A stretch of DNA of 64,000 nt from Candidatus Omnitrophota bacterium (lineage in GTDB: Bacteria; Omnitrophota; Gorgyraeia; VGKH01). The notes beneath the pieces were generated by a model. The model was not told the origin of the DNA. It did not search any database and saw only the letters and a program-made list of their open reading frames with translations. Numbering within the stretch: the first letter of the stretch is position 1; every line of letters starts with the position of its first letter. This document shows, in pieces, positions 28,467 to 56,722 of the stretch. The DNA is taken from assembly GCA_022703055.1 (NCBI GenBank), contig JAKLEP010000003.1, positions 150,238 to 214,237 of the forward strand, given 5' to 3'. The position numbers and the translations under genes are program-made.

Positions 28467-29750
28467 TTAGACAGGCACAGAAAGTGAGGAATCGGGAGTT
28501 ACTGCGGTTATCTTAACCTTCTTGAGTTTGTTGCCCAAAATAGGCTTTTTACTATTTATAAAAGTTTTTATATAGTTATCTGAATAGCCCTGGAAAAATC
28601 CGGTTTCTTTTTCAATTTGCTGTTCAACAAGCACCTCCAGGATTTTATGCAAAAACTTCTTTCTGTATTGATAGGACATTTCTCTTGCCAAGCCCTGGAG
28701 GATTAGCATCCTTGCTTTTGTTGTGGCGCTGTCAATCCTCTCTCCAAAACAATAGGCAGGCGTATGTTCCCTTGGGCTAAAAGGAAAAATGTGCACCCTT
28801 GAAGGCTTGATCTCTTTTAAAAACCCAACCGTATTCTTAAACCTTTTTTCTGTCTCTTGAGTAAAACCGACCATTATATCTGTAGTGATAGCGATTTGGG
28901 GGATTTCCTTGCGGATTCTGTTGACTAATTCTATGTAGGATTCTGCGGTGTATTTCCTGTTCATCTTTTTTAGAACCGAATCATCGCCGCTTTGAAAAGG
29001 AATATGTAAATGTCGGCACATTTTCTTGGAGCCGGCAATCCTATCAATCAGCTTATCCGTAACATCCTTGGCTTCAATTGAACTTAAGCGGATGCGAAAA
29101 TCACCGTCGAGCTTTTCAATCGAATCAATAACGCTGACTAAATCTGTTCCTTGTTTTAAATCCCTGCCGTAGGCACCAAGGCAAATCCCGGTTAAGACTA
29201 TTTCTTGAAAACCATTCTTGATTAACCGCTCTGTTTCTTTTACTATGCTTTGAAAATCCCTGCTTCTTGATCTTCCCCTGACAACAGAAACCTTACAGTA
29301 AGAACAATGATTATCGCAGCCATCCTGAATCTTCACGAAAGCCTTATCGTGATCAAAGAAATTACTTATCTCTAAATCAGTAAATTTCTGATTGTTTCTA
29401 CCGACAGGCTTGATTTCTTTGGATAATAATAAATCGGAAATAACATTTTTTTGTTCATTTGATATTATTAAATCTACCCCTTCAATACCTGTAATCTTGT
29501 CCCTATCCTTTTCTACGTAACAACCAGTAACAATCACTTTTGCCTTAGGATTCTCCCTTACAGAACGATAGATATACTCCCGGGATTTCCTATCGGCGGC
29601 GCTAGTTACAGTGCAGGTGTTAATGACATAGCAGTCTGCCTTACCGTTTCCTGCTTCTTTAAACCCTCTTTTTAAACAGGCTTCTCTGATAGCTTGAGTT
29701 TCGTATTGATTGACTTTACAGCCTAAGGTATGGAATTTTATCGTTGGCAT
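28467..29750 (-). CDS. mtaB: tRNA (t6A37) methylthiotransferase MtaB (MiaB-like radical SAM)
   Basis: UPF0004 N-domain (FHTLGCKVNQYE, YVINTCTVT), radical SAM CDNHCSYC, and a TRAM-like C-terminus. Confidence 0.8.
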   Translation of the reverse strand: MPTIKFHTLGCKVNQYETQAIREACLKRGFKEAGNGKADCYVINTCTVTSAADRKSREYIYRSVRENPKAKVIVTGCYVEKDRDKITGIEGVDLIISNEQKNVISDLLLSKEIKPVGRNNQKFTDLEISNFFDHDKAFVKIQDGCDNHCSYCKVSVVRGRSRSRDFQSIVKETERLIKNGFQEIVLTGICLGAYGRDLKQGTDLVSVIDSIEKLDGDFRIRLSSIEAKDVTDKLIDRIAGSKKMCRHLHIPFQSGDDSVLKKMNRKYTAESYIELVNRIRKEIPQIAITTDIMVGFTQETEKRFKNTVGFLKEIKPSRVHIFPFSPREHTPAYCFGERIDSATTKARMLILQGLAREMSYQYRKKFLHKILEVLVEQQIEKETGFFQGYSDNYIKTFINSKKPILGNKLKKVKITAVTPDSSLSVPV

Positions 29751-29765
29751 TTTATAGGCAGGTTT

Positions 29766-30506
29766 TTATATTTTTGATTCTAAAATAGAATTCAATACAG
29801 CAACTACCGTAATTGCTGCGGTATCCACCTTCAGCACATTTTCTCCTAAAGTCACTAGCTTGCAACCTGATTTCCTTGCTAAATCTGCCTCTTCCTCGGA
29901 AAAGTCGCCTTCTGGGCCGATAAAAATAATAATTCTTCTTTCTTTAAAGCCTTTTAGGGCTTCAGCCAAATGAACCCTTTCGCCCTCCAACGTTGGGAAA
30001 AGAGCTAAGTCATAATTTTCTAGTTTTGAAATAACGTTTTTAAAGTTTTGCACTTCCTCTATCTGCGGGATGTAACTTCTCTGGCTTTGTTTAGAGGCAT
30101 TGATAGCAACTTGCCTCCAGTGGCCGACCTTTTCCAACATTCTATCTTTTTTGTATCTTACTTCAGACCGCTCTGTCTCGAGTGGAATTATCCTATCTAC
30201 TCCCAATTCAGTAAGTTTCTCGACGATAAAATCAAACTTTGCCTTTTTGGGAACCGCGCAGGCTAAAGTAATCTCAAATGGCCTTCTCTTTGACTCATAT
30301 TTGTTCTCAATCATAATTCTTATGCTATTCTTAGAAATTTCTTTTATTTTTCCTTCGAACTCAAAGCCTTCTCCATTAAAGATTGTAATATCACTCTCAA
30401 TCCCAAATCTTAAAACATCAACGATATGATGAATTTCCTTTTTGTCATTTATAGTTATAACTTTTTCGCTTATATTTTCCGATGGGCAGAAAAACCGGTT
30501 ATGCAT
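29766..30506 (-). CDS. rsmE: 16S rRNA (uracil1498-N3)-methyltransferase
   Basis: 246 aa. PUA-like N-terminus and the SPOUT C-terminal motif FIGPEGDFSEEE...LGENVLKVDTAA. Confidence 0.85.
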   Translation of the reverse strand: MHNRFFCPSENISEKVITINDKKEIHHIVDVLRFGIESDITIFNGEGFEFEGKIKEISKNSIRIMIENKYESKRRPFEITLACAVPKKAKFDFIVEKLTELGVDRIIPLETERSEVRYKKDRMLEKVGHWRQVAINASKQSQRSYIPQIEEVQNFKNVISKLENYDLALFPTLEGERVHLAEALKGFKERRIIIFIGPEGDFSEEEADLARKSGCKLVTLGENVLKVDTAAITVVAVLNSILESKI

Positions 30507-30509
30507 AAT

Positions 30510-31184
30510 TTAAAACCTCGCCAGCTGATAATTCCAGGCTGATATAAAAAGTTGGAGCCCTAAAAAACAAAGTATAAATCCGCAGATTTTCTGAAATATA
30601 ATAAAAAAACGCTCCTTATCTTTAAACAGTTTATTGATGAAACTTGAAAAAACCACTAAAAAAATCAAAGGCGAAATAACCGTACCCAATCCAAAAGATA
30701 GACTCAATAATAAACCCTTAACCCAAGAAAAAGAAACCATGCCGATATAGGAAAGTACCCCGATAAGAGGCGCGCATGGGGAAATCCCGATGACCAATCC
30801 AAAAATGAATATGCTTTTTGCATCGTTCTCTATCAGGTTTTTTCTTAGCAATCTGCAGAGCTTGAAACGTGGTTCCTTCCCTAAAATTATCAATAGTCCT
30901 ATAGCAAATATGAAGATCCCGCCGGCAAAATAAAAAAACCGAGAAAGATGCATTTGATAATTCTGATAAATAAATAATTCGCTTAAAAATCCGACGAGCA
31001 CCCCCAAAATCAGATAGGCGATTATTCTGCTCAAGGAGAAAATTAGATATAAGCGAATGCTGTCTTTTAATCCGGTTTTAGTGGCGGCGGAATAACTTAT
31101 CAACAAAGGACCGCAGCTTGCCATGCATGGCCCCATACCTAAAGCGACGCCGCTCAAAAACAGGCTAATGACTAAATTCAACAT
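30510..31184 (-). CDS. CcdA/DsbD_2-like thiol-disulfide transfer membrane protein
   Basis: Six predicted TM helices, with GMGPCMASCGP in TM1 and ISPCAP in a later helix. Confidence 0.55.
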   Translation of the reverse strand: MLNLVISLFLSGVALGMGPCMASCGPLLISYSAATKTGLKDSIRLYLIFSLSRIIAYLILGVLVGFLSELFIYQNYQMHLSRFFYFAGGIFIFAIGLLIILGKEPRFKLCRLLRKNLIENDAKSIFIFGLVIGISPCAPLIGVLSYIGMVSFSWVKGLLLSLSFGLGTVISPLIFLVVFSSFINKLFKDKERFFIIFQKICGFILCFLGLQLFISAWNYQLARF

Positions 31185-32726
31185 TTATTTTATTGTTTTC
31201 TCCGAGAAGACTTCGGCGCTAAAAATTGAAATTTGAGTGGTTTTATCTTTCCAAGCGTCTTCGGGAAGCCCGGCCTTCAGACAGGTTTGTTTTAAGAATG
31301 TTTCCCTGTTCCATCCGTATTCTGTGGCAACCTGCGGAAGAAGCAACCCTTGAAAAAACCCTCTTCGTATAATGATGCCGTGCTTTCCCACTTCTATTTT
31401 ATTTACGTCTTTTATCTCTTCGATTGGAGAAAGCGCAGATATATCAATTTCAATATCGTTTAACTCTTTGGCAGTAACTGGATAAAAACGCGGATCATCT
31501 ATTGCCGCTTCGATTGCCATGCTTGCCACGACTTCATAAAGCGGATCATCAGCAACGATTCTCCCAATACACCCACGAAGCTGGCCATTTTTATTCAATG
31601 TTACAAATGCACCTTGGTGTCTTTTTAACACCGGATCGTCGACGGCAAATTCCTTGCGTTTGCCGGTTTTTACATAATTCTCCATAGATTCTCTGGCTAT
31701 TGTAAGTAATGTCTTTTTCTGTTCATTCGAAAGCATGGTTTCTCCTTTCGGATCATCCTCCCGATAAATCACGGCGCTGGCATATCCTACGACTTTAGAA
31801 AGATCTCCCAAGACATCGCCGGAATTAGCGCGTTTTAATATTTTTATCTTGGCCTGGACGTCTTTTGCGTAAGTAAGCAAAGTTATTACCGGCGCAATGC
31901 CACATAATTCAGCCTTGCCTGCTAAATCTGCCTGCCAAAGACCTTTACAATCTAAACCTTGAAAATATCCGACGGTAGTTTTATCTATTGAGTTTGCTTC
32001 GGCATAAGGATGATAATGAGATAAATCGGTTGAAGCAATGATCAAAACATCTTCCCTTTTTCCGATGATGTCCCTGAGAACACCCGCCAAGGATTCCGAG
32101 TCAGCCAGATTAGGGCTTCCCATTACAATCGGGACAATCTTGGCTGTTGGCAGAACCTTTTGCACAAACGGCAGCTGCACCTCCAAAGAGTGCTCCTTGG
32201 CAAAAGCTTCAGGAATGAATTTTGCCCGATCTAAACGCTTTAATATCTGGCCTGTAAACTCGCTATCCACTTTCATATCCCCTAAAGGTGTTTTAAACTC
32301 CCCCTCTGGCCAGATAGATATTCCATTAAAACCGTAATAATGGCTCGGCGCCATGACCACAACAGTATTATAGTTCTTCCCCTGAATTAACTTATATCCA
32401 TGCGCTGCTATTGCTGCCGAATATTCATAGCCAGCGTGAGGAGAAATTAATCCGATTATCTTGCCATTGACCCCAGGAACAATCGCGTCTTTCAAATATG
32501 AATCAATTTTATCGGAAAGGACTTTTGGATCGGCAGGATAGAAGCTTCCGCTTACATTAGGATTTTTCGTCTCTTGAGCACCCGAATAACAGGCGCTTAA
32601 TAGGATCGAACAAAAAACTAATAAAGTTATAACCCTACTTCCAGATGCCAGGAATTTTCGTGCCACAAAATTTACATTTTCCATTTTCGATATTATTTTC
32701 CGTGATGGTATATCCGGAACGGCCAA
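31185..32726 (-). CDS. amrB/amrA: AmmeMemoRadiSam system protein B (Memo-like) fused to protein A (AMMECR1), with a lipoprotein-type signal
   Basis: Memo motif SPHAGYEYS and DLSHYH. AMMECR1 motif GAFVTLNKNGQLRGCIG. The N-terminus ends in the lipobox LSAC (Cys46). The start is uncertain (ATG 32726 or 32684, GTG 32666), and all candidates overlap the upstream gene. Confidence 0.8.
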   Translation of the reverse strand: MAVPDIPSRKIISKMENVNFVARKFLASGSRVITLLVFCSILLSACYSGAQETKNPNVSGSFYPADPKVLSDKIDSYLKDAIVPGVNGKIIGLISPHAGYEYSAAIAAHGYKLIQGKNYNTVVVMAPSHYYGFNGISIWPEGEFKTPLGDMKVDSEFTGQILKRLDRAKFIPEAFAKEHSLEVQLPFVQKVLPTAKIVPIVMGSPNLADSESLAGVLRDIIGKREDVLIIASTDLSHYHPYAEANSIDKTTVGYFQGLDCKGLWQADLAGKAELCGIAPVITLLTYAKDVQAKIKILKRANSGDVLGDLSKVVGYASAVIYREDDPKGETMLSNEQKKTLLTIARESMENYVKTGKRKEFAVDDPVLKRHQGAFVTLNKNGQLRGCIGRIVADDPLYEVVASMAIEAAIDDPRFYPVTAKELNDIEIDISALSPIEEIKDVNKIEVGKHGIIIRRGFFQGLLLPQVATEYGWNRETFLKQTCLKAGLPEDAWKDKTTQISIFSAEVFSEKTIK

Positions 32727-33777
32727 TAATCAGTTTTCTGCAGACCGGACAGAAGGTAGATTCTGCAAGGCTGCCAGGAATGTTTCCGATATAAACATAA
32801 TTTAAACCAGCATCCTTGGCGATTTTTTCAGCCCTTTCAAGAGTCTCGACGGGAGTTGGTGAAATATTAGTCAATTTATACATCGGGAAAAACCTTGAGA
32901 AATGCAAAGGCGTATCGGAACCTAAATTATCTTTTATCCAAACGCACATATTCTTTATCATTTCGGGATCATCGTTAAAACCTGGCACTATTAGATTTGT
33001 TATTTCGACCCAAACACCTTCCTGTTTCAATATTTTTAAGGTTTGCAGAACTGAATCCAGGTTTCCTAGGCTCATCTGGCTATAAAAATCCTGGCTGAAA
33101 CCCTTTAAATCAATATTCGCAGCATCCAAATATTTGCAAAGTTCTCTTAGGGGCGGCTCATTGATATGGCCTGCTGAATGCATCACATTCATCAGCCCCT
33201 CTTTTTTGGCAATCTTTGCGGTATCTAACATATACTCATAAAATATCGTAGGTTCGGAATAAGTATAGGCAATAACCCGGGAACCGGCTTTTTTAGCCCT
33301 TTCTACCAATTCTTGCGGACTTAAATTAAAAGATTCTACTTCTTCGGGAAGAGCCTGAGAAATATCCCAGTTCTGGCAGAATTTACATCTTAGATTGCAA
33401 CCTGCAGTCGCAACCGAATAAGCTGTGTTTCCTGGCAAAACGTGGAATAACGGCTTTTTTTCGATAGGATCTATATGCACGGCGCACGGCCTGGCATAAA
33501 CTAAAGTGTAAAGAACTCCGCCGCGATTTTCCCGCACTCCGCAAAAACCGCGTTTTTTATCTGGGATAACACAGTTACGCGGGCAAAGGTGGCATTGAAC
33601 AACAAAATCCTTCAGCTTCTGGTAATACATCGCTTCTTTTAAATCCTGATTTGAAGCGCTGTGCAGAGACGAATACAGTGCTAATCCCAACAAAATAAAC
33701 AAAACTAATATCCCTAATATAAGTTTTCTCATGATTATTTCTATCAAGGGTGGCGCCGAAACACATTGTTTCGGCAT
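32635..33777 (-). CDS. amrS: AmmeMemoRadiSam system radical SAM enzyme with an N-terminal TM anchor
   Basis: GCNLRCKFCQNW motif and a C-terminal CPVC...CKFC zinc-ribbon-like pair. An alternative start is at 33732 (MRKLILGILV...). Confidence 0.85.
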   Translation of the reverse strand: MPKQCVSAPPLIEIIMRKLILGILVLFILLGLALYSSLHSASNQDLKEAMYYQKLKDFVVQCHLCPRNCVIPDKKRGFCGVRENRGGVLYTLVYARPCAVHIDPIEKKPLFHVLPGNTAYSVATAGCNLRCKFCQNWDISQALPEEVESFNLSPQELVERAKKAGSRVIAYTYSEPTIFYEYMLDTAKIAKKEGLMNVMHSAGHINEPPLRELCKYLDAANIDLKGFSQDFYSQMSLGNLDSVLQTLKILKQEGVWVEITNLIVPGFNDDPEMIKNMCVWIKDNLGSDTPLHFSRFFPMYKLTNISPTPVETLERAEKIAKDAGLNYVYIGNIPGSLAESTFCPVCRKLIIGRSGYTITENNIENGKCKFCGTKIPGIWK

Positions 33778-33782
33778 CCACC
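33749..33782 (-). other. GC-rich hairpin between tRNA-Ala and the amrS coding start
   Basis: Minus strand GGTGG-at-GCCGAAAC-aatgt-GTTTCGGC-g-CCACC (13 bp). No U-tract follows it. It overlaps the first codons of the longest amrS ORF. Confidence 0.4.
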
Positions 33783-33805
33783 AATCCTTTCATCAATGAA
33801 AGGAC

Positions 33806-33881
33806 TGGTGGAGCAGATGAGATTTGAACTCACGACCCCCTCGTTGCGAACGAGGTGCTCTCCCAACTGAGCTACTGCCCC
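33806..33881 (-). tRNA. tRNA-Ala (anticodon CGC), CCA encoded
   Basis: Reverse complement: GGGGCAGTAGCTCAGTTGGGAGAGCACCTCGTTCGCAACGAGGGGGTCGTGAGTTCAAATCTCATCTGCTCCACCA. It forms a cloverleaf with a G3:U70 pair, the anticodon loop TTCGCAA, and GTTCAAATC in the T-loop. Confidence 0.95.
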
Positions 33882-35098: not shown

Positions 35099-35509
35099 TT
35101 ACTGGCAAGCAGGGCAAACGGCAAACCCATACGAATTACAGGGAGTCCCTACTAAGTTATTGCAACACAAGCAACCAGTTGCATCAATTTGCAGTGAATA
35201 TGCACCACCTGTTCTTGTCATGGTTATCGTGCCCGTTCCTGCTCCGCTACAGGCCGGAGCTCCAAAATTCTTGATAGTTGTCCAGGTAGTATCCAGACCA
35301 GTACAGGATGCTTCTACTAAATAGTTACCGTTATTTGCTGCGGCATATCTTTCATTAGCTGTTCTTAAGTCGCCCAACAAACTCATTGCCTCTGTGGCGC
35401 GCCCCTTTTCTGTACCTCCAGTAAATCTAGGAATAGCTATCGATACGATTATACCCAAGATAATTACTACGATGATTAATTCCAATAATGTAAAGGCTTT
35501 GTTTTTAAT
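35099..35509 (-). CDS. cysteine-rich type IV pilin, paralogue 2 (probable ATT start)
   Basis: About 80% identical to the 35631..36038 pilin. The track ORF begins at a TTG inside the conserved FTLLE motif. The in-frame sequence upstream reads IKNKAFTLLE back to a TAA stop, with no ATG/GTG/TTG. ATT at 35509-35507 lies 5 nt after GGGGG. Confidence 0.6.
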   Translation of the reverse strand: MKNKAFTLLELIIVVIILGIIVSIAIPRFTGGTEKGRATEAMSLLGDLRTANERYAAANNGNYLVEASCTGLDTTWTTIKNFGAPACSGAGTGTITMTRTGGAYSLQIDATGCLCCNNLVGTPCNSYGFAVCPACQ

Positions 35510-35630: not shown

Positions 35631-36038
35631 CTACTGGCAAGCAGGGCAAACTGCCATTCCGTAGCCAGCGCAAGGCGTTCCCACAAGATTATTGCAGCAT
35701 AAGCATCCGGTTGCGTTAATCTGTATTGAATACGCGCCGCCGGTTCTTGTCATAGTTATTACGCCGTTTGCTGCATCGGTACAGACTGGTGTTCCAAAGT
35801 TCTTAAGGGTAGTCCAGGTAGTATCTAAACCTGTGCAAGTAGCATTTACCAAATAGTTGCCGCTATTTCCTGCAGCATATCTTTCATTGGCAGGCCTTAA
35901 TGACCCCAATAAACTAATTGCTTCCGTAATTCTGCTCTTTTCAGTTCCACCAGTGAATCTGGGAATAGCAATCGATACAAGTATGCCTAAAATTATTACT
36001 ACAATGATTAGTTCCAGTAATGTAAAACCTCTTTTCAT
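35631..36038 (-). CDS. pilA: cysteine-rich type IV (major) pilin, paralogue 1
   Basis: MKRGFTLLELIIVVIILGILVSIAIPRF prepilin leader with Gly-1/Phe+1/Glu+5. AGGAGG SD. 8 Cys in the globular part. Confidence 0.85.
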   Translation of the reverse strand: MKRGFTLLELIIVVIILGILVSIAIPRFTGGTEKSRITEAISLLGSLRPANERYAAGNSGNYLVNATCTGLDTTWTTLKNFGTPVCTDAANGVITMTRTGGAYSIQINATGCLCCNNLVGTPCAGYGMAVCPACQ

Positions 36039-51184: not shown

Positions 51185-52306
51185 TTACAACGATTTTAAA
51201 ATCTCTATCGGCGATGGTGGGCACCCCGACGCAGCGCAATATCCGAATTCTTCCGCATATTTCATCGAGCAATTCCCGAGACAAATAACTTTGCCCTTAC
51301 CATCTTTCATTTTAGGCTTGGCTCCTGCAGTGAATTGAACACCCTTAAACAAAATCAGATATATCCACTTTGGCATATATTTGATAAAAAGTCTTGGAGA
51401 CTTCAAAGTCATTTTCATCGCTTCCCTAAGAGAATCGGTACACATGCTACAAGCATTTTTGTTACGGATATTCAACAATCTAAACATTCTAAAATAGTCC
51501 ATATTGGGTAATTTAAACGTTCTTTTTAGGGCGTCTATATCATCTCCGGCAAGCTCCGGCTCTATATCGCCAATACCTATTTTAGAGGCGATATTTATGT
51601 GAGGGACAGAAAACGGATCTATCCCCATCAACCTACAGCAGATTGCATCCACGGCCACAATGTCTTCTCCGAAAACACAAACATTGCTTTTAATTTTCTT
51701 ACCCTGTAATAACGGCCCATCTCCTTCTATCCCCACTATACCATCAACAATAGTCAAATTTGGCTTAACAACCTTTGCCAATTCGGCTATAGGCTCATCC
51801 AAACCCCAAGAAATATGGAAACCTTTTTTATATTCGCTTCTTAGCAAGCCCTTCTGATTTTTCAATCCTAAAGAAACCAAAGTCTGCATATGTGTCTTAA
51901 GCTTGGGGACATTGATATAATAAGATTCAGTTATTATCCGTGGTATTCGTATTTTTCCAAACTTCCAGCTTTTCTCAACTGTTTCAGCCTTTTCAAGATT
52001 CAATAATTGAACGTTTTCTTCTCGGGCAAGCCGCTCAAAGCCGCTTACTTTAAAAGCAAGCTCAACATCGACATTTAAACCGGGTGATTCACCAATGATT
52101 ATTCTCTTTACGCCGGATTCCTTTAGATATTTGATAATAGCTTTTACTAGCCTAAAATCAGTTACTACAGCGGAATGCGGCTTTGCCGCAATAACGATAT
52201 TTGGCTTTATCAATACGGTTTCCCCATTGATACGCGCAGAAACAGTCTTTAAATGCTGGTAGACCTGTTTTGGATTTTTTGTCTTAAAAATATAAACTTT
52301 ACTCAT
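51185..52306 (-). CDS. DUF362 domain protein with a Cys-rich C-terminus
   Basis: N-terminal VLIKPNIV...IIIGESPG pattern of DUF362. C-terminal cysteines CSMCTDS...CLGNCSMKY...CAASGCPP. Confidence 0.65.
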   Translation of the reverse strand: MSKVYIFKTKNPKQVYQHLKTVSARINGETVLIKPNIVIAAKPHSAVVTDFRLVKAIIKYLKESGVKRIIIGESPGLNVDVELAFKVSGFERLAREENVQLLNLEKAETVEKSWKFGKIRIPRIITESYYINVPKLKTHMQTLVSLGLKNQKGLLRSEYKKGFHISWGLDEPIAELAKVVKPNLTIVDGIVGIEGDGPLLQGKKIKSNVCVFGEDIVAVDAICCRLMGIDPFSVPHINIASKIGIGDIEPELAGDDIDALKRTFKLPNMDYFRMFRLLNIRNKNACSMCTDSLREAMKMTLKSPRLFIKYMPKWIYLILFKGVQFTAGAKPKMKDGKGKVICLGNCSMKYAEEFGYCAASGCPPSPIEILKSL

Positions 52307-52470
52307 TTTTTAAAATCACCAGGATCGAATATCGGTTTCTGTGTAAAATATTGCTCTTGCCTGCCGCGCAAAATCGCGACAACAGAGATAACAAGCAAAA
52401 GAACGCTAGTCCCAATAAACATTACTAACCAAATCAAAACATAAAAAATTGACTTGAGAAATCTTATCAT
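52303..52470 (-). CDS. 55-aa single-TM protein candidate
   Basis: MIRFLKSIFYVLIWLVMFIGTSVLLLVISVVAILRGRQEQYFTQKPIFDPGDFKK. It has ATGA overlaps with both the upstream stop (52467-52470) and the downstream DUF362 start (52303-52306). Below the track cutoff. Confidence 0.5.
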   Translation of the reverse strand: MIRFLKSIFYVLIWLVMFIGTSVLLLVISVVAILRGRQEQYFTQKPIFDPGDFKK

Positions 52471-53279
52471 TCTTCTCCAATAACATAGAGATGGTGCGCA
52501 GTCAGCTGCTTAAACCATCTAGGCATATTATCCTCAATATTTGAAAGCACTCTAATAGGAAGATATTTGTCAATATCAGGATCAAGTATGCTCCAAAGCC
52601 ATTTTTTACCGACAGCATTTTTGACATATGTCATGCTGCCTTGTATCATTGAATCTCCCGTATCCAGCCATGGCGGATTATCAACACCGTTGGAATCTAT
52701 GACTCGCAAGCCTGCTTCCTTATAATATTTTTTCATCCCTGTTATGGTCATAAATTTTATATTGCCGTGATCCCAAGGTTTCCTTCTGATTTTATGCACG
52801 AGATTGTGAATCCAATACCCTATTCCATAAGGATTGAGCGTACTGGTATAAACCAACTTTCGCGAAAGTCTTTTCATTTCTAATAATAGGTCTAAAGGCG
52901 ACGGACTGTCGTACTGTTCAATCACCAGATGGTTCCAAACCAAATCAAAAGAATTAGATTCTAAATTTGCATGCAAATCATCATTATGCTCTATTATCTT
53001 TACCCTATCCAACAAGCCTGCTCCCTTCCAGATACTCAGCGCTTCTTGGTAATCTCTTGAATGGACAAGTATCGTAACGTCATAGCCGGCTAAAGCAAGC
53101 AAGACGCTACTAAAAGCAGGAACGCCGCATATAAATGTAGCGTTTAACTCGAGAATTTTTTTAACGTTGTTTATTTTGCAAACTCTATCCAAGACATGGA
53201 ATATGGCCAGCCTTTCATAGGCGCCGCCTAGCCCGTCGTCATATTTATTATATAAATCTAAATTCTGTTTTCTTCCCAT
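52467..53279 (-). CDS. methyltransferase-like (Rossmann-type) protein, divergent
   Basis: 270 aa. KILELNATFICGVP...GYDVTIL resembles a degenerate SAM-binding motif I and acidic loop. Assignment is tentative. Confidence 0.4.
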   Translation of the reverse strand: MGRKQNLDLYNKYDDGLGGAYERLAIFHVLDRVCKINNVKKILELNATFICGVPAFSSVLLALAGYDVTILVHSRDYQEALSIWKGAGLLDRVKIIEHNDDLHANLESNSFDLVWNHLVIEQYDSPSPLDLLLEMKRLSRKLVYTSTLNPYGIGYWIHNLVHKIRRKPWDHGNIKFMTITGMKKYYKEAGLRVIDSNGVDNPPWLDTGDSMIQGSMTYVKNAVGKKWLWSILDPDIDKYLPIRVLSNIEDNMPRWFKQLTAHHLYVIGEE

Positions 53280-53281
53280 TT

Positions 53282-54775
53282 TTAGCAGTTTCTAAATTGT
53301 TTTATTTTTTTGAACTTCTTATTGATAAGTGAAGTAAAAAAATATCTTAAATACCTTTTCCAATTTAATAAATTCTCTTTTATCAAGATATATCTCACTG
53401 GGTTGCGGAAGAATTTATGCATCTCGAATTTTAAGTAAGCTTCGTTACGCAGGCTTTCAATCTCATCAGCAGTTAATAAATCGGTTGATTGCGCGGCGCA
53501 CTTTGGTCTTAATCTGGCATAATAATCCAAAGACGAATTGTCATCTTTATTATAAAATCTCCATAAATCGGTCCCGGGATATGCGGAAGCGATATTAAAA
53601 AGTACGTCATCCAACCCCAAGGAACAAGCAAAGTTGATGGTATCTCTTATTTCTTTTTTTGTTTCGCCAGGCAAGCCGATGACAAAAAAACCAACAGTTT
53701 CTATTTTTAGCTTCTTCATAAGTCTTATTTTCGATTTGACCTCATCTAAAGAGATATCTTTTTTCTTTATGATGTTTCTAAGTACATTGGCATTGCCAGA
53801 TTCAATACCAAGGAACAAACGGTAGCAACCGCTCTCTTTCATTTTGCTCAATAGTTCCTCATCTAAATTAGAGATATGTACGCCGTTGGGTGTGGTCCAG
53901 GCAATATCGATTTTTCGAGCTATAATTTCGTTGCATATATCCATCATTCTTGCCCTATCAAATGTGAGATTATCATCTTCAAAATGTATTTCTTTTATGC
54001 CATGTTCTTTAACTAGCAGCTCTATTTCATCAACAACATTCTGGCAACTTCTTGAGCGCCATCTATAGCCAAAAGAAACATGAATTGAACAAAATATACA
54101 ATTACCCGGACAACCTCTAGACGTCAAAACCGGCATATAGGGGGTTCGCCTCAAAAAGTTGCTATGAGGGTTCTTAGAATGCAAATATTTTTCTTTAGCA
54201 GGAAATAAATCCCATACTGGAAACGGAATATTATCTAAATCAGAAATATAATCTTTTTTAGGATTAACTTTGATAGTTCCATTATTTTTATACGATAAGC
54301 CTTCTACAGTATCAAGGCTTTGTTTTTTTTCTAAATTGTTAACCAATGACAAGAAAGACTTTTCTCCTTCTCCTATGATAACAAAATCAATATTCTTATT
54401 TTTCAAGATCTCATGAGGTATAGCTGAAGGATGCGCTCCCCCCAGTACGACTTTGGCATTGCAGTTTCTTTTTACAAAATCGACCAGCTGTAAAACACTC
54501 GGCGCCTGCACTGAATAGCTGTTACTGATCCCAACTAATTCAGGTCCTATAAGCTTTATCTTCTCTTTTATCATATCCCAGGGCATTCCTATTCTGCACA
54601 TTCCATCTTCATAATTATTGATTGTCTGGTCTTCAGTTAAACAATCAATTACCGAAACCTCATGATTATTTTCTCTCAAAACTGATGCCAAGTATCCTAT
54701 GCCTAAAGGAAAAGTACAAAAAGGAATCTCACCTTGAAGAAAAATTCCGGGCGGAACCATCAACAGGATCTTCAT
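53282..54775 (-). CDS. B12-binding-domain radical SAM protein
   Basis: N-terminal cobalamin-binding-like domain (MKILLMVPPG...GIGYLASVL) and SRGCPGNCIFCS (Cx3Cx2C). Confidence 0.85.
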   Translation of the reverse strand: MKILLMVPPGIFLQGEIPFCTFPLGIGYLASVLRENNHEVSVIDCLTEDQTINNYEDGMCRIGMPWDMIKEKIKLIGPELVGISNSYSVQAPSVLQLVDFVKRNCNAKVVLGGAHPSAIPHEILKNKNIDFVIIGEGEKSFLSLVNNLEKKQSLDTVEGLSYKNNGTIKVNPKKDYISDLDNIPFPVWDLFPAKEKYLHSKNPHSNFLRRTPYMPVLTSRGCPGNCIFCSIHVSFGYRWRSRSCQNVVDEIELLVKEHGIKEIHFEDDNLTFDRARMMDICNEIIARKIDIAWTTPNGVHISNLDEELLSKMKESGCYRLFLGIESGNANVLRNIIKKKDISLDEVKSKIRLMKKLKIETVGFFVIGLPGETKKEIRDTINFACSLGLDDVLFNIASAYPGTDLWRFYNKDDNSSLDYYARLRPKCAAQSTDLLTADEIESLRNEAYLKFEMHKFFRNPVRYILIKENLLNWKRYLRYFFTSLINKKFKKIKQFRNC

Positions 54776-54776
54776 T

Positions 54777-55844
54777 TCAAGCCTTCCTCATTATTCCTAA
54801 TAGACATTTTGCGTTTAACAACATATTCGTATATGAAGAATTTGCTAAAGGACAAAAACAATCACTATTTTTTATTTTCTTGCGTATATCAACTGCCCTG
54901 CTGCTTCTCCAGATTTTCTTGAAATCATAACCCGCCTCTTTAAGATTTCCTATTTTCTCTGATTTTATACAGCAGGCCCAGACATCGCCATTAGGAATGA
55001 TATGGCAAGATGCTAATCCGGCATAACAAGGGATGACCCGTTTCTTATCCTGCAAAATCTTTTTTACCATTTCGTAATACCTTATCCTAAATGCCTCAGT
55101 AGTTTTAGCCAAACCTGAAAACTTAATTTTTTTAATACTATCTACTAAGAAATCTATGGCCTGACAATAATCTTCAACCGCTGGAGTAATATCGGAACCT
55201 ACAGTACCCAACTCTTCCCTTTCTTCTGCGATCTCGGTGATATAGGAATCAGGGCCCAATTCATTCATCACAAAATTATAGATCTCCGGTAATCTTTTTA
55301 CATTAAACTTAGAGATAACGGTGTGCACGCCTAAAACCAAATTATGCGCCTTCAAGCTTTTCAAGGCTCGATAAGTATTCAACGCCTTAACGAAATTTCC
55401 TTCAACTCCCCGAATAAAATCATGCTTTTCTTTGATATCGTCCAAAGACAGATTAATTACAACTTTTGTTTTTTTGCAGATATCTAAGATTTTTTTGACT
55501 TTATCCGGAATAACTTCGCATAATAAACCATTTGTGGGTATGGTGATTACTTTTGGCTGGCAATTTATATAAGCACTTTCGCAGATATCCACAAAATCAT
55601 TTCTTAAGAAAACTTCCCCTCCGCTAAAGGTTATCCAATATATCTGGTTTTTTCCGATAGATTTAAAGACCTGACCAAGCTCATCCCTGCTTAATTCTTC
55701 GCTCTTCTTATTATATATATGGCAAGTTTGACAACGGGAATTGCACCTAAAAGTAACACTAACCGTCAAATTCATAGGGAAAGGCGGATTTAGGTTAAAC
55801 TTCCTGGCTAAATTGTATTTAATAATTTTAATCGGAATAATCAT
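54777..55844 (-). CDS. radical SAM / SPASM-type protein
   Basis: FRCNSRCQTCH motif, FSGGEVFL, and a C-terminal Cys cluster CYAG...ACCIKS...CFCP. The track ORF starts at 55925; the ATG at 55844 makes an ATGA overlap with the upstream GT2 stop. Confidence 0.85.
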   Translation of the reverse strand: MIIPIKIIKYNLARKFNLNPPFPMNLTVSVTFRCNSRCQTCHIYNKKSEELSRDELGQVFKSIGKNQIYWITFSGGEVFLRNDFVDICESAYINCQPKVITIPTNGLLCEVIPDKVKKILDICKKTKVVINLSLDDIKEKHDFIRGVEGNFVKALNTYRALKSLKAHNLVLGVHTVISKFNVKRLPEIYNFVMNELGPDSYITEIAEEREELGTVGSDITPAVEDYCQAIDFLVDSIKKIKFSGLAKTTEAFRIRYYEMVKKILQDKKRVIPCYAGLASCHIIPNGDVWACCIKSEKIGNLKEAGYDFKKIWRSSRAVDIRKKIKNSDCFCPLANSSYTNMLLNAKCLLGIMRKA

Positions 55845-56722
55845 TGTAGCTGCTTGGTTGATTTTGCGGTTTGCCAAATGTAAGGATTTTTCTTTAATAT
55901 ATAAATATCGAAAGTGCCAAGGCAACGCGCCCAGAATTCTAGGAGCATAACTCCGAAAGTCCAGAACAAATTCTTAATATTGAACCTTACTGCGCGCGGC
56001 AATAACCTAAGGATTCTAAAAATTTTATTTGTTGAAACCTCATATCCGGTTTTTTCTTTAAGCCATAGATGACCGGAGCAAATTCTGCGTCTCTGCATTA
56101 TGAAATCCTTTATATTCTCCGGCCCCTTGTTTCTTACCACTGCCTCGGGAACATACTTTAACTTTAATCCTTTTTGAGAAATTATTGCTTCAAAGCTAGC
56201 CTCATCAACTGCGCTATCTCCCGGGATACTTTCAACAATATTCCTGAAGGCGATCATTTCTCCCAATTTTGGCGCTTCCAGAGCGACAAAATGGTGCAGC
56301 TGCCAAAGCAAATTCACCGCAAAACCGATAAAAGTATCGGAACTGTTAACAGGTAATGACCTAGTACCAGTCATGCCGATTTCTTTGTCTAAAAACGGAG
56401 CGACAAGATTTTCTATGGTATTTTTATCCGGCAAGATATCCGCGCTTGAAACAACCACGATTTCTTCCTCGGCTAAATTAAGGAATTCATTTATTGCTAT
56501 AGATTTTCCCTTTCTCTGGTTATGCGCAAACAAAGTGATGCGATTGTCTGTTCTCGCCCATTCTTCAACAATCCTGTTGGTATTATCGGTACTACCGCTA
56601 GACACTACTACTATCTTATTAATTTTTACTTTAAATAAGTCCTGTTTAACCAGACTCTCTAGCAATTGGCCGATATTGGCCTGCTCATTATATGCAATAA
56701 TTCCTATGCTGCAATTAATCAT
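55841..56722 (-). CDS. family 2 glycosyltransferase
   Basis: IGIIAYNEQANIGQLLESL...VVSSGSTDNT...SADILP, a GT-A fold with a DxD-like motif. Confidence 0.8.
   Translation of the reverse strand: MINCSIGIIAYNEQANIGQLLESLVKQDLFKVKINKIVVVSSGSTDNTNRIVEEWARTDNRITLFAHNQRKGKSIAINEFLNLAEEEIVVVSSADILPDKNTIENLVAPFLDKEIGMTGTRSLPVNSSDTFIGFAVNLLWQLHHFVALEAPKLGEMIAFRNIVESIPGDSAVDEASFEAIISQKGLKLKYVPEAVVRNKGPENIKDFIMQRRRICSGHLWLKEKTGYEVSTNKIFRILRLLPRAVRFNIKNLFWTFGVMLLEFWARCLGTFDIYILKKNPYIWQTAKSTKQLQ

Follow-up and report, generated by a model that had tools for sequence, protein, structure and literature searches.

An AmmeMemoRadiSam locus with predicted export signals and a DsbD_2 membrane partner in a Candidatus Omnitrophota genome

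Genes at the locus

The stretch of DNA analysed here (the window) comprises 64,000 nucleotides of a Candidatus Omnitrophota genome. It carries a two-gene form of the AmmeMemoRadiSam system, consisting of a radical S-adenosylmethionine (SAM) enzyme and a fusion of a Memo domain with an AMMECR1 domain, followed by a DsbD_2 membrane protein. The proteins of this locus have public counterparts of 100% identity, to which NCBI has given names. Along the minus strand the order is tRNA-Ala, two RNA hairpins, the radical SAM gene, the Memo+AMMECR1 fusion, DsbD_2, rsmE and an mtaB-like gene, the five protein-coding genes being tightly packed. An initial annotation of this stretch had recognised the AmmeMemoRadiSam system in the first two of these genes, and this identification is borne out: the genes are adjacent, and they match TIGR04337 (radical SAM), TIGR04336 (protein B, Memo) and TIGR04335 (protein A, AMMECR1) far above the cutoffs. 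Public annotation uses the same names, including 'protein B/protein A' fusions.

The open reading frame (ORF) of the radical SAM enzyme occupies 32635..33777 on the minus strand. NCBI and JGI both start it at 33732, which gives a protein of 365 aa (32635..33732), and the alternative ATG at 33777 gives 380 aa. The protein is 100% identical to the NCBI-named P0121, scores 388.4 bits against TIGR04337 (cutoff 220) and 82 bits against PF04055, and contains the motif CNLRCKFC of a radical SAM enzyme. The CX3CX2C cluster motif (33376..33399, minus strand; C112/C116/C119 in the 365-aa numbering) falls in invariant alignment columns. C47, C64, C328 and C353 are likewise invariant across the family alignments, and C50, C54, C331 and C356 are at least 90% conserved, so that the enzyme has 11 conserved cysteines. 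AlphaFold2 predicts a confident globular domain (predicted local distance difference test, pLDDT, 91.5), with residues 2-26 as a detached helix and a low-confidence, disordered linker (24-28) before the globular domain. The closest solved relative is PflA, the pyruvate formate-lyase activating enzyme (PDB 3C8F/3CB8), with a Foldseek E=1.5e-14, a target-normalised TM-score of 0.81 and a phmmer value of 4e-10, and the CX3CX2C site is shared with PflA and the glycyl-radical activases. Unlike PflA, the window enzyme has additional cysteine clusters in its N-terminal part (C47/C50/C54/C64) and its C-terminal part (C328/C331/C353/C356), and a predicted export signal. No glycyl-radical enzyme gene was found in the locus, and the PFLA, YjjW and NrdG models give 53-59 bits against cutoffs of 131-250.

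The fusion ORF (31185..32726, minus strand) can be read from three starts: TTG 32726 (513 aa), ATG 32684 (499 aa; 31185..32684, the public call, identical at 100% over 499 aa to P0001) and GTG 32666 (493 aa). The Memo domain, at residues 56-319 (31770..32561, minus strand), scores 203 bits against PF01875 and 266.9 bits against TIGR04336 (cutoff 26). The AMMECR1 domain, at residues 342-507 (31206..31703, minus strand) and with the motif LRGCIG, scores 200 bits against PF01871 and 193.2 bits against TIGR04335 (cutoff 99), and matches 1VAJ/PH0010 with E=8e-41. On alignment to human MEMO1 (3BCZ), residues H49, H81, D189 and H192, the last two in what we take to be the MEMO1 numbering, are matched in the window by PHAGY, PSHY and TDLSHY. 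Of these, H49 and H81 are the metal ligands of MEMO1 (PMC11081632). Both domains of the fusion align with known structures, namely MEMO1 (3BCZ/7KQ8) and archaeal AMMECR1 homologues (1VAJ, 1ZQ7, 1WSC). These homologues are separate, cytosolic, single-domain proteins, whereas in the window the domains are fused and preceded by a predicted signal peptide.

The start codon of the DsbD_2 gene (30510..31184, minus strand) abuts the stop codon of the fusion. Its product, a protein with a putative CcdA-like fold and six predicted transmembrane (TM) helices, scores 80.8 bits against PF13386 and 32.3 bits against PF02683 (cutoff 27.1). Residues P19-C20 and C24 (GPCxxxCGP, in TM1) and P136-C137-A-P139 (PCAP, in TM4) are invariant in 63 sequences. 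A PDB sequence search gave no match, but the AlphaFold2 model (pLDDT 78.7) has CcdA (5VKV) as its top Foldseek match, aligned over the full length with probability 1.0, but with a TM-score of only 0.55 and E 0.037. The second-best fold matches are NqrE and NqrD. Because loops 1-2, 3-4 and 5-6 are rich in Lys and Arg, the protein is predicted to be N-out/C-out. It resembles CcdA/DsbD in its six TM helices, predicted orientation, Pro-Cys pairs in TM1 and TM4 and PF02683 score. It differs in belonging to the DsbD_2 branch, in having a CxxxC pair in TM1, in having no thioredoxin-like partner nearby, and in its presumed client, a radical SAM enzyme in place of cytochrome c or DsbC/G. The initial annotation had already pointed to this CcdA-like neighbour, and its relevance is supported.

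N-terminal signals, gene linkage and domain fusions

The predicted export signal of the fusion (32577..32684, minus strand) consists of an n-region with R23/K24/R31, the h-region VITLLVFCSILL, and then the sequences LSA|C46 and SGA50|QE. Upstream of the Memo domain, in-frame starts are found only at codons 1 (TTG), 15 (ATG) and 21 (GTG), the next in-frame ATG, GTG or TTG being codon 78, already within the domain. Given that there is no start between codons 21 and 78, the hydrophobic segment is necessarily translated, and a start downstream of it, one of the refuting possibilities named in the initial annotation, is ruled out. Among the 120 best homologues (48-100% identity, all of them fusions of about 470-550 aa), a strongly hydrophobic 12-mer immediately precedes the Memo domain in 111, and in 106 of these the positive charge is greater on the upstream side of the 12-mer. 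The junction has the consensus [S/C]-F-A|Q-E-[I/V]-K-x-P-N-V-[A/S]-G-x-F-Y-P. Position -1 is Ala in 94-98 of the 120, and on its sequence the A|QE junction is a textbook signal peptidase I (SPase I) site.

In the window fusion this site reads S48-G-A50|Q-E, and A50|Q51 is found in all 13 of the closest homologues and in 98 of the 120. Four residues before it lies the lipobox L-S-A-C46 (Cys codon 32591-32589), which is preceded by an n-region rich in K and R and by a hydrophobic core of 13 residues. It matches the pattern [LVI][ASTVI][GAS]C, with the Cys at position 32 from ATG 32684 or 26 from GTG 32666, inside the expected range of 15-35. Of the 13 closest homologues, 9 have Cys46 (three more have a Cys two residues later), but of all 120 only 14 do. 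Export of the fusion is well supported by these features. Lipidation at Cys46 is possible, its uncertainty arising because Cys46 is less conserved than the A50|Q51 SPase I site. The earlier description of the fusion as a lipoprotein is therefore upheld as regards export and the lipobox, and left uncertain as regards lipidation.

The 3' end of the radical SAM gene, encoding ENGKCKFCGTKIPGIWK before the stop codon, lies over the n-region of the fusion signal (32635..32684, minus strand). The overlap is 92, 50 or 32 nt from TTG 32726, ATG 32684 or GTG 32666 respectively, in agreement with the 32-92 nt first reported. Fusion homologues show an apparently conserved N-terminus, MENVNFAxRKLxVSG, which is a +2-frame reading of the radical SAM C-terminal sequence ENGKCxFCGxxIxG. 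As a functional motif it was rejected, being an other-frame shadow of the conserved GKCxFCG/CxxC tail of the radical SAM enzyme. The shadow shows that the overlap and the gene order are conserved, and it accounts for the variable fusion starts chosen by gene callers.

The radical SAM enzyme itself begins MRKLILGILVLFILLGLALY. It has a Sec-type signal or signal-anchor (33649..33732, minus strand) made up of MRK, a 17-residue hydrophobic core and the c-region HSAS|NQD, that is, a positively charged n-region, h-region and c-region with S-A-S|N or H-S-A|S as an SPase I-type site. An N-terminal hydrophobic segment with a K/R-rich n-region is present in 114 of 119 close homologues, with a net charge of +2.1 on the N-terminal flank and 0 on the C-terminal flank, the N-terminal flank being the more positive in 99 of the 114. 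Their c-regions share the consensus C-F-Y-L-P-x-[I/L]-x-A|Q-E-K-L-K-E-A; position -1 is Ala in 67 of 120, and the -3/-1 cleavage motif is kept together with Pro at -5. The conservation of the N-terminal segments in about 111 of 120 fusions and 114 of 119 radical SAM homologues is far beyond chance. It answers the concern that homologues might lack a signal, and a radical SAM start downstream of the segment is unlikely given this conservation. By the positive-inside rule, the charge of the N-terminal flank predicts that this signal-like export segment is N-in/C-out, which would place the catalytic domain outside. The N-terminal TM anchor described in the initial annotation is therefore present, although its layout is that of a signal peptide and its predicted orientation N-in/C-out.

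A wider view was obtained from 80 loci found by a pattern scan of one genome per GTDB species, with 48-69% identity and from more than 20 phyla, including Altiarchaeota and Aenigmatarchaeota. They were annotated with purpose-built hidden Markov models, and topology was assigned from hydropathy and charge rules only. Their radical SAM N-termini comprise 45 classic twin-arginine translocation (Tat) signals, 21 Sec/TM-type segments and 14 without a signal. The mean hydropathy of the 12-residue h-region is 1.77 for the Tat type and 3.01 for the Sec type, as expected of genuine Tat and Sec signals. A cryptic Tat signal on the Omnitrophota enzyme was also considered and rejected: the residues are RK, KK or KN and not RR, and the hydropathy is about 3.0 as against 1.8. 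The window enzyme itself, with M-R-K-L-I-L and a very hydrophobic core, does not fit the Tat motif [ST]-R-R-x-F-L-K. Tat-signal radical SAM genes are also found in L027 (Altiarchaeota) and L044 (Aenigmatarchaeota), the adjacent fusion of L027 having a lipobox-like LVGC, so that the exported variant appears to span both prokaryotic domains.

Within a locus, the signal states of the radical SAM enzyme and the Memo-AMMECR1 fusion go together: both have a signal in 23 loci and neither in 6, the radical SAM enzyme alone in 1 and the fusion alone in 3. Signal-less orthologues start at the domain boundary, as do their partners (L043, L048, L082, L089). This co-variation implies that the partners are either both exported or both cytoplasmic, and it contradicts the suggestion of the initial annotation that they would sit on opposite sides of the membrane, as do the charge bias, the Tat signals of orthologues and the fusions described below. 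Of the 21 Sec-type radical SAM genes, 16 have the DsbD_2 gene as a neighbour; among the 45 genes of Tat type and the 14 that lack a signal there is no such case. Both p values, 5e-4 (Fisher) for the paired signals and 2e-11 for DsbD_2, are inflated by phylogenetic non-independence. The neighbourhood, whose conservation had been in question, is conserved. The DsbD_2-linked Sec-type loci represent at least 8 phylum-level lineages: Omnitrophota, Planctomycetales, Auribacterota, Chlamydiae, UBP3, Elusimicrobia, Lentisphaerae and Verrucomicrobiota. DsbD_2 does not keep one position in them: it may follow the fusion, follow the radical SAM gene immediately, precede that gene, or be fused to FMN_bind and NapH-like domains (L019, L025, L026). 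In L016, L023 and L036 it accompanies a radical SAM gene that has no Memo-AMMECR1 gene nearby.

Further evidence comes from 150 relatives, found by scanning every cluster representative at 50% identity. An N-terminal extension is missing from about two thirds of them; canonical Tat signals (for example SRRDFIKK, TRREFLQQ and TRRRFLAA) occur in at least 27 and segments of Sec/TM type in at least 10. In 7 of the 150, on the basis of Pfam and hydropathy, the radical SAM domain is fused behind membrane redox modules. Two have a TM segment, FMN_bind and the radical SAM domain, with no TM segment between the two domains (P0249, P0251); two have TM, FMN_bind, a NapH-like (Fer4_5) domain, a further TM segment and radical SAM (P0241, P0242); one has DsbD_2, FMN_bind, NapH-like, TM and radical SAM (P0259); and two have DsbD_2 followed by radical SAM (P0246, P0250). 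From the TM count and the positive-inside rule, the radical SAM domain is placed outside in every one that can be counted (P0242, P0259, P0249, P0251 and P0246), and the predicted N-out/C-out orientation of DsbD_2 agrees with an extracytosolic FMN_bind domain following it in P0259. The FMN_bind domains in these fusions bear the ApbE flavinylation motif Dxx[S/T]GAT. In P0257, radical SAM, Memo and AMMECR1 domains follow one TM segment in a single chain, which puts all three on one side of the membrane. A distinct group among the representatives consists of signal-less radical SAM+AMMECR1+Memo triple fusions of about 1000-1150 aa with long extra regions (P0286, P0320, P0334, P0336, P0342, P0360, P0362, P0369), and P0264 has the reverse order Memo+AMMECR1+radical SAM.

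FMN_bind/NapH-like modules have been described as extracytosolic electron-transfer devices (PMC8238504). The NapH-like/NosR-type flavinylated modules found fused to or beside the radical SAM gene in relatives (FMN_bind PF04205 and Fer4_5 PF12801, with ApbE and CX3CP motifs) follow the same logic, in that a redox enzyme outside the cytosol receives its electrons from such modules (Meheust et al., 2021; PMC8238504). The main text of that paper mentions no radical SAM, Memo or AMMECR1 clients. No FMN_bind/NapH-like gene is present in the window operon.

Other features of the locus and its relatives

The tRNA-Ala(CGC) gene (33806..33881, minus strand; ARAGORN) lies directly 5' of the operon, and two stable RNA hairpins (33756..33809, minus strand; fold -35.9 kcal/mol, z = -6.7) lead from it to the radical SAM start. 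In the first, the CACCA 3' end of the tRNA pairs with a downstream UGGUG and sequesters AAGGA, the sole Shine-Dalgarno-like sequence; the second spans codons 2-8 of the longer, 380-aa radical SAM ORF. The ATG at 33777 was rejected as the start, its own Shine-Dalgarno-like sequence and codons 2-8 being buried in these hairpins, and ATG 33732 is favoured for the same reason. The predicted topology is the same with either start. The hairpins could be a tRNA processing element, a terminator or a translational control element.

Downstream, rsmE (29766-30506, minus strand), for a 16S rRNA methyltransferase, lies 3 nt 3' of DsbD_2, and an mtaB/MiaB-like gene for a radical SAM methylthiotransferase (28467-29750, minus strand) lies 15 nt 3' of rsmE. 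The two are likely to be co-transcribed with the putatively exported system. The order DsbD_2-rsmE-mtaB is kept in Omnitrophota-like loci (L004, L006, L008, L010-L015, L022), down to about 49% fusion identity, and is probably phylum-level context only. The rsmE and mtaB neighbours were set aside as a pointer to RNA modification: their synteny does not extend beyond Omnitrophota-like loci, and with export signals present an RNA substrate is unlikely.

The tRNA is directly preceded by a type IV pilus/type II secretion system-like cluster (PilB, PilC, secretin). It includes tandem paralogous pilin-like genes (35099-35485 and 35631-36038, both minus strand) with the class III signal motif GFTLLELIIVV and near-identical Cys-rich C-termini (CLCCNNLVGTPC...AVCPACQ).

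Among the 80 loci, two further families recur beside the radical SAM gene. In 37 of them its neighbour encodes a polytopic membrane protein, about 650-860 aa long, that has a spermidine-synthase-like domain at its centre (PF01564; NF037959 'fused MFS/spermidine synthase'), for example at L036:7709-9856, L023:7506-10058 and L076:3672-5816, with 34 other loci. These are 26 Tat-type, 8 Sec-type and 3 other loci, and none of the Bacteroidales cytoplasmic-type loci; the protein was not found in the window. Its hydropathy indicates 7 TM helices with the N-terminus inside (KKKK before TM7), which places the domain with the fold for SAM or decarboxylated SAM outside. Possibly this protein is a fourth part of the exported system. 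In 15 of the 80 loci a Tat-signal DUF362 (PF04015) protein is encoded directly upstream of a Tat-type radical SAM gene (L040:4919-5923, L085:4784-5872 and 13 other loci). The window also has a DUF362 ORF (51185-52306, minus strand), 18 kb from the radical SAM locus and without a signal. Beside it lie one methyltransferase-like ORF and two further ones whose Cys motifs are of the radical SAM type (52467-55925). Several other families that recurred as neighbours when the loci were clustered, among them the largest of those checked, are antisense or shadow ORFs and were discarded.

Proposed location of the system and role of DsbD_2

The canonical description of AmmeMemoRadiSam implies soluble cytoplasmic proteins, in contrast to the window pair, which is export-tagged and accompanied by a conserved DsbD_2 component. 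Judged by its sequence, the locus is a member of an export-tagged AmmeMemoRadiSam variant with a putative membrane redox partner, a description of which was not found in the literature search. We somewhat favour, with modest confidence, the reading that this is an envelope-located (extracytoplasmic) form of the system to which DsbD_2 supplies reducing power. Both partners are then predicted to lie on the same, outer side of the membrane. The Sec-type signal or signal-anchor would hold the radical SAM enzyme N-in/C-out, with its 11-Cys catalytic domain in the periplasm at the inner membrane. The fusion would be exported to the same side and cut either by SPase II at LSA|C46, as a lipoprotein, or by SPase I at A50|QE. 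DsbD_2 would pass reducing equivalents across the membrane to the Sec-exported, unfolded, cysteine-rich radical SAM enzyme, whose reduced thiols would permit metal cluster formation, and it might also feed electrons. In sister lineages, fusion of DsbD_2 to a flavinylated FMN_bind/NapH-like transmembrane electron conduit would extend the same role. The radical SAM, Memo and AMMECR1 domains would act jointly on an envelope substrate. The evidence is computational throughout. It establishes which domains are present, the signals with their conservation and co-variation, the linkage of the genes and the domain fusions, whereas translocation, the cleavage site, lipidation, the direction and acceptor of electrons from DsbD_2, the supply of iron-sulfur (Fe-S) clusters and SAM outside, and the substrate are all matters that we infer.

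The restriction of DsbD_2 to Sec-type loci suggests what it may do. Tat-exported enzymes leave the cytoplasm folded and loaded with their clusters, and Sec-exported ones leave unfolded. What the Sec-type enzymes in particular would need is therefore, in the simplest view, reduction of their thiols or assembly of their cofactors once they have been exported. DsbD_2 may serve this need, by analogy with CcdA, which keeps apocytochrome c reduced after Sec export. The acceptor of its reducing power may be the radical SAM enzyme itself.

Several points weigh against a periplasmic radical SAM enzyme reduced in this way. We know of no characterised radical SAM enzyme that functions outside the cytoplasm, and SAM, low-potential reductant and the Fe-S assembly machinery are, as far as is known, cytoplasmic. 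Direct reduction of a radical SAM [4Fe-4S] cluster calls for a lower potential than thiol/disulfide couples provide. The Sec-like, non-Tat signal (MRK) implies that the enzyme crosses the membrane unfolded and needs cluster insertion outside, for which we know of no precedent. A full-text literature search gave no exported or periplasmic radical SAM enzyme and no AmmeMemoRadiSam signals, though an analysis of Memo-AMMECR1-radical SAM contexts, reportedly made by Burroughs et al. in 2019, might mention them. No thioredoxin-like gene was found in the operon itself or, for L001-L009, among the neighbouring genes with Pfam annotation. The reliance of the topology on hydropathy and charge rules, and the inflation of the p values, belong here too. 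So do L063 and L077, in which a signal-less radical SAM gene stands beside a NapH-like gene. In these loci (L063:4228-6987, L077:4584-7077) the radical SAM protein starts at the first Cys motif and follows the FMN_bind/NapH-like gene, and a pattern search for the flavinylation motif Dxx[ST]GAT found none in that gene in either locus. The same electron module may here be used on the cytoplasmic side, or the starts may be mis-assembled. The stronger proposition that the Sec-routed enzyme both gains and uses its Fe-S clusters outside, with DsbD_2 as the enabling device (for thiols, electrons or Fe-S/metal), is held only tentatively, as possible but doubtful.

The same cytoplasmic home of SAM, reductant and Fe-S assembly could be kept if the radical SAM enzyme were tethered N-out/C-in, facing the cytoplasm, and the fusion were a periplasmic lipoprotein, the two communicating across the membrane, possibly via DsbD_2, which could connect the two sides. 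The absence of a twin-arginine from the Omnitrophota signal, so that folded export is not predicted, fits this arrangement. It is nevertheless quite improbable. The charge bias predicts N-in (+2.1 versus 0; 99 of 114 homologues), the c-region keeps a cleavage motif, 45 of the 80 orthologous loci have Tat signals that would export the whole domain, single chains join the radical SAM domain to extracytosolic FMN_bind or to Memo-AMMECR1 behind one TM segment, and the signal states of the partners co-vary. Even less can be said for the idea that the N-terminal extensions are annotation artefacts or non-functional, and that this is an ordinary cytoplasmic system with DsbD_2, rsmE and mtaB merely syntenic. 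Public calls for P0122, P0146 and P0158 do start the radical SAM protein downstream of the hydrophobic segment, an in-frame ATG (33630) is available at codon 50 of the 380-aa ORF, and the rsmE/mtaB synteny is phylum-specific and probably not functional. However, the fusion offers no start codon that could be used past its signal, the open frame and signal-peptide architecture are kept to about 48% identity and across phyla, truly cytoplasmic orthologues and their partners start at the domain boundary, and the DsbD_2 linkage persists in different gene orders and as gene fusions, all of which makes an artefact very improbable indeed.

A closer rival accepts export and differs on DsbD_2, which belongs to a LysE/TauE-like clan and could transport a metal or small molecule: iron, Fe-S species, SAM or by-products. 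NCBI names the protein 'sulfite exporter TauE/SafE family' and its best NCBIfam match, weak and far below cutoff, is the ArsG organoarsenical efflux permease, so a transporter role is possible, which counts against a reducing role. The three invariant intramembrane cysteines could ligate a thiophilic cargo, and restriction to Sec-type radical SAM enzymes would fit cofactor delivery after unfolded export. The second-best fold matches, NqrD and NqrE, hold an intramembrane 2Fe-2S cluster. Set against this, the top fold match, aligned over its full length, is the electron transporter CcdA, the Pro-Cys motifs of TM1 and TM4 are those characteristic of CcdA/DsbD, and in L019, L025, L026 and P0259 DsbD_2 is fused to a bona fide electron-transfer module (FMN_bind and NapH-like). 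A SAM transporter, moreover, would also be needed by the Tat-type systems, yet these have no DsbD_2 nearby. We regard transport as unlikely, though it is the likeliest of the three rivals.

If the envelope-located reading is correct, it would overturn the assumption that radical SAM chemistry is strictly cytoplasmic, and this would be the first radical SAM family predicted to be periplasmic. Memo and AMMECR1 are disease-linked proteins in humans whose molecular function is not known; their function would relocate to the cell envelope in many lineages, where an envelope substrate and a transmembrane redox supply would be needed. Should maturation of the Sec-routed forms also take place outside, there would be an unrecognised extracytoplasmic route of Fe-S maturation and a periplasmic supply of SAM, and Memo and AMMECR1 would represent envelope chemistry in about a third of prokaryotic lineages. 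The prediction poses concrete questions as to the origin of SAM, of electrons and, for the Sec-routed forms, of Fe-S clusters, and the strict association of DsbD_2 with Sec-type loci would provide a genetic handle on the system.

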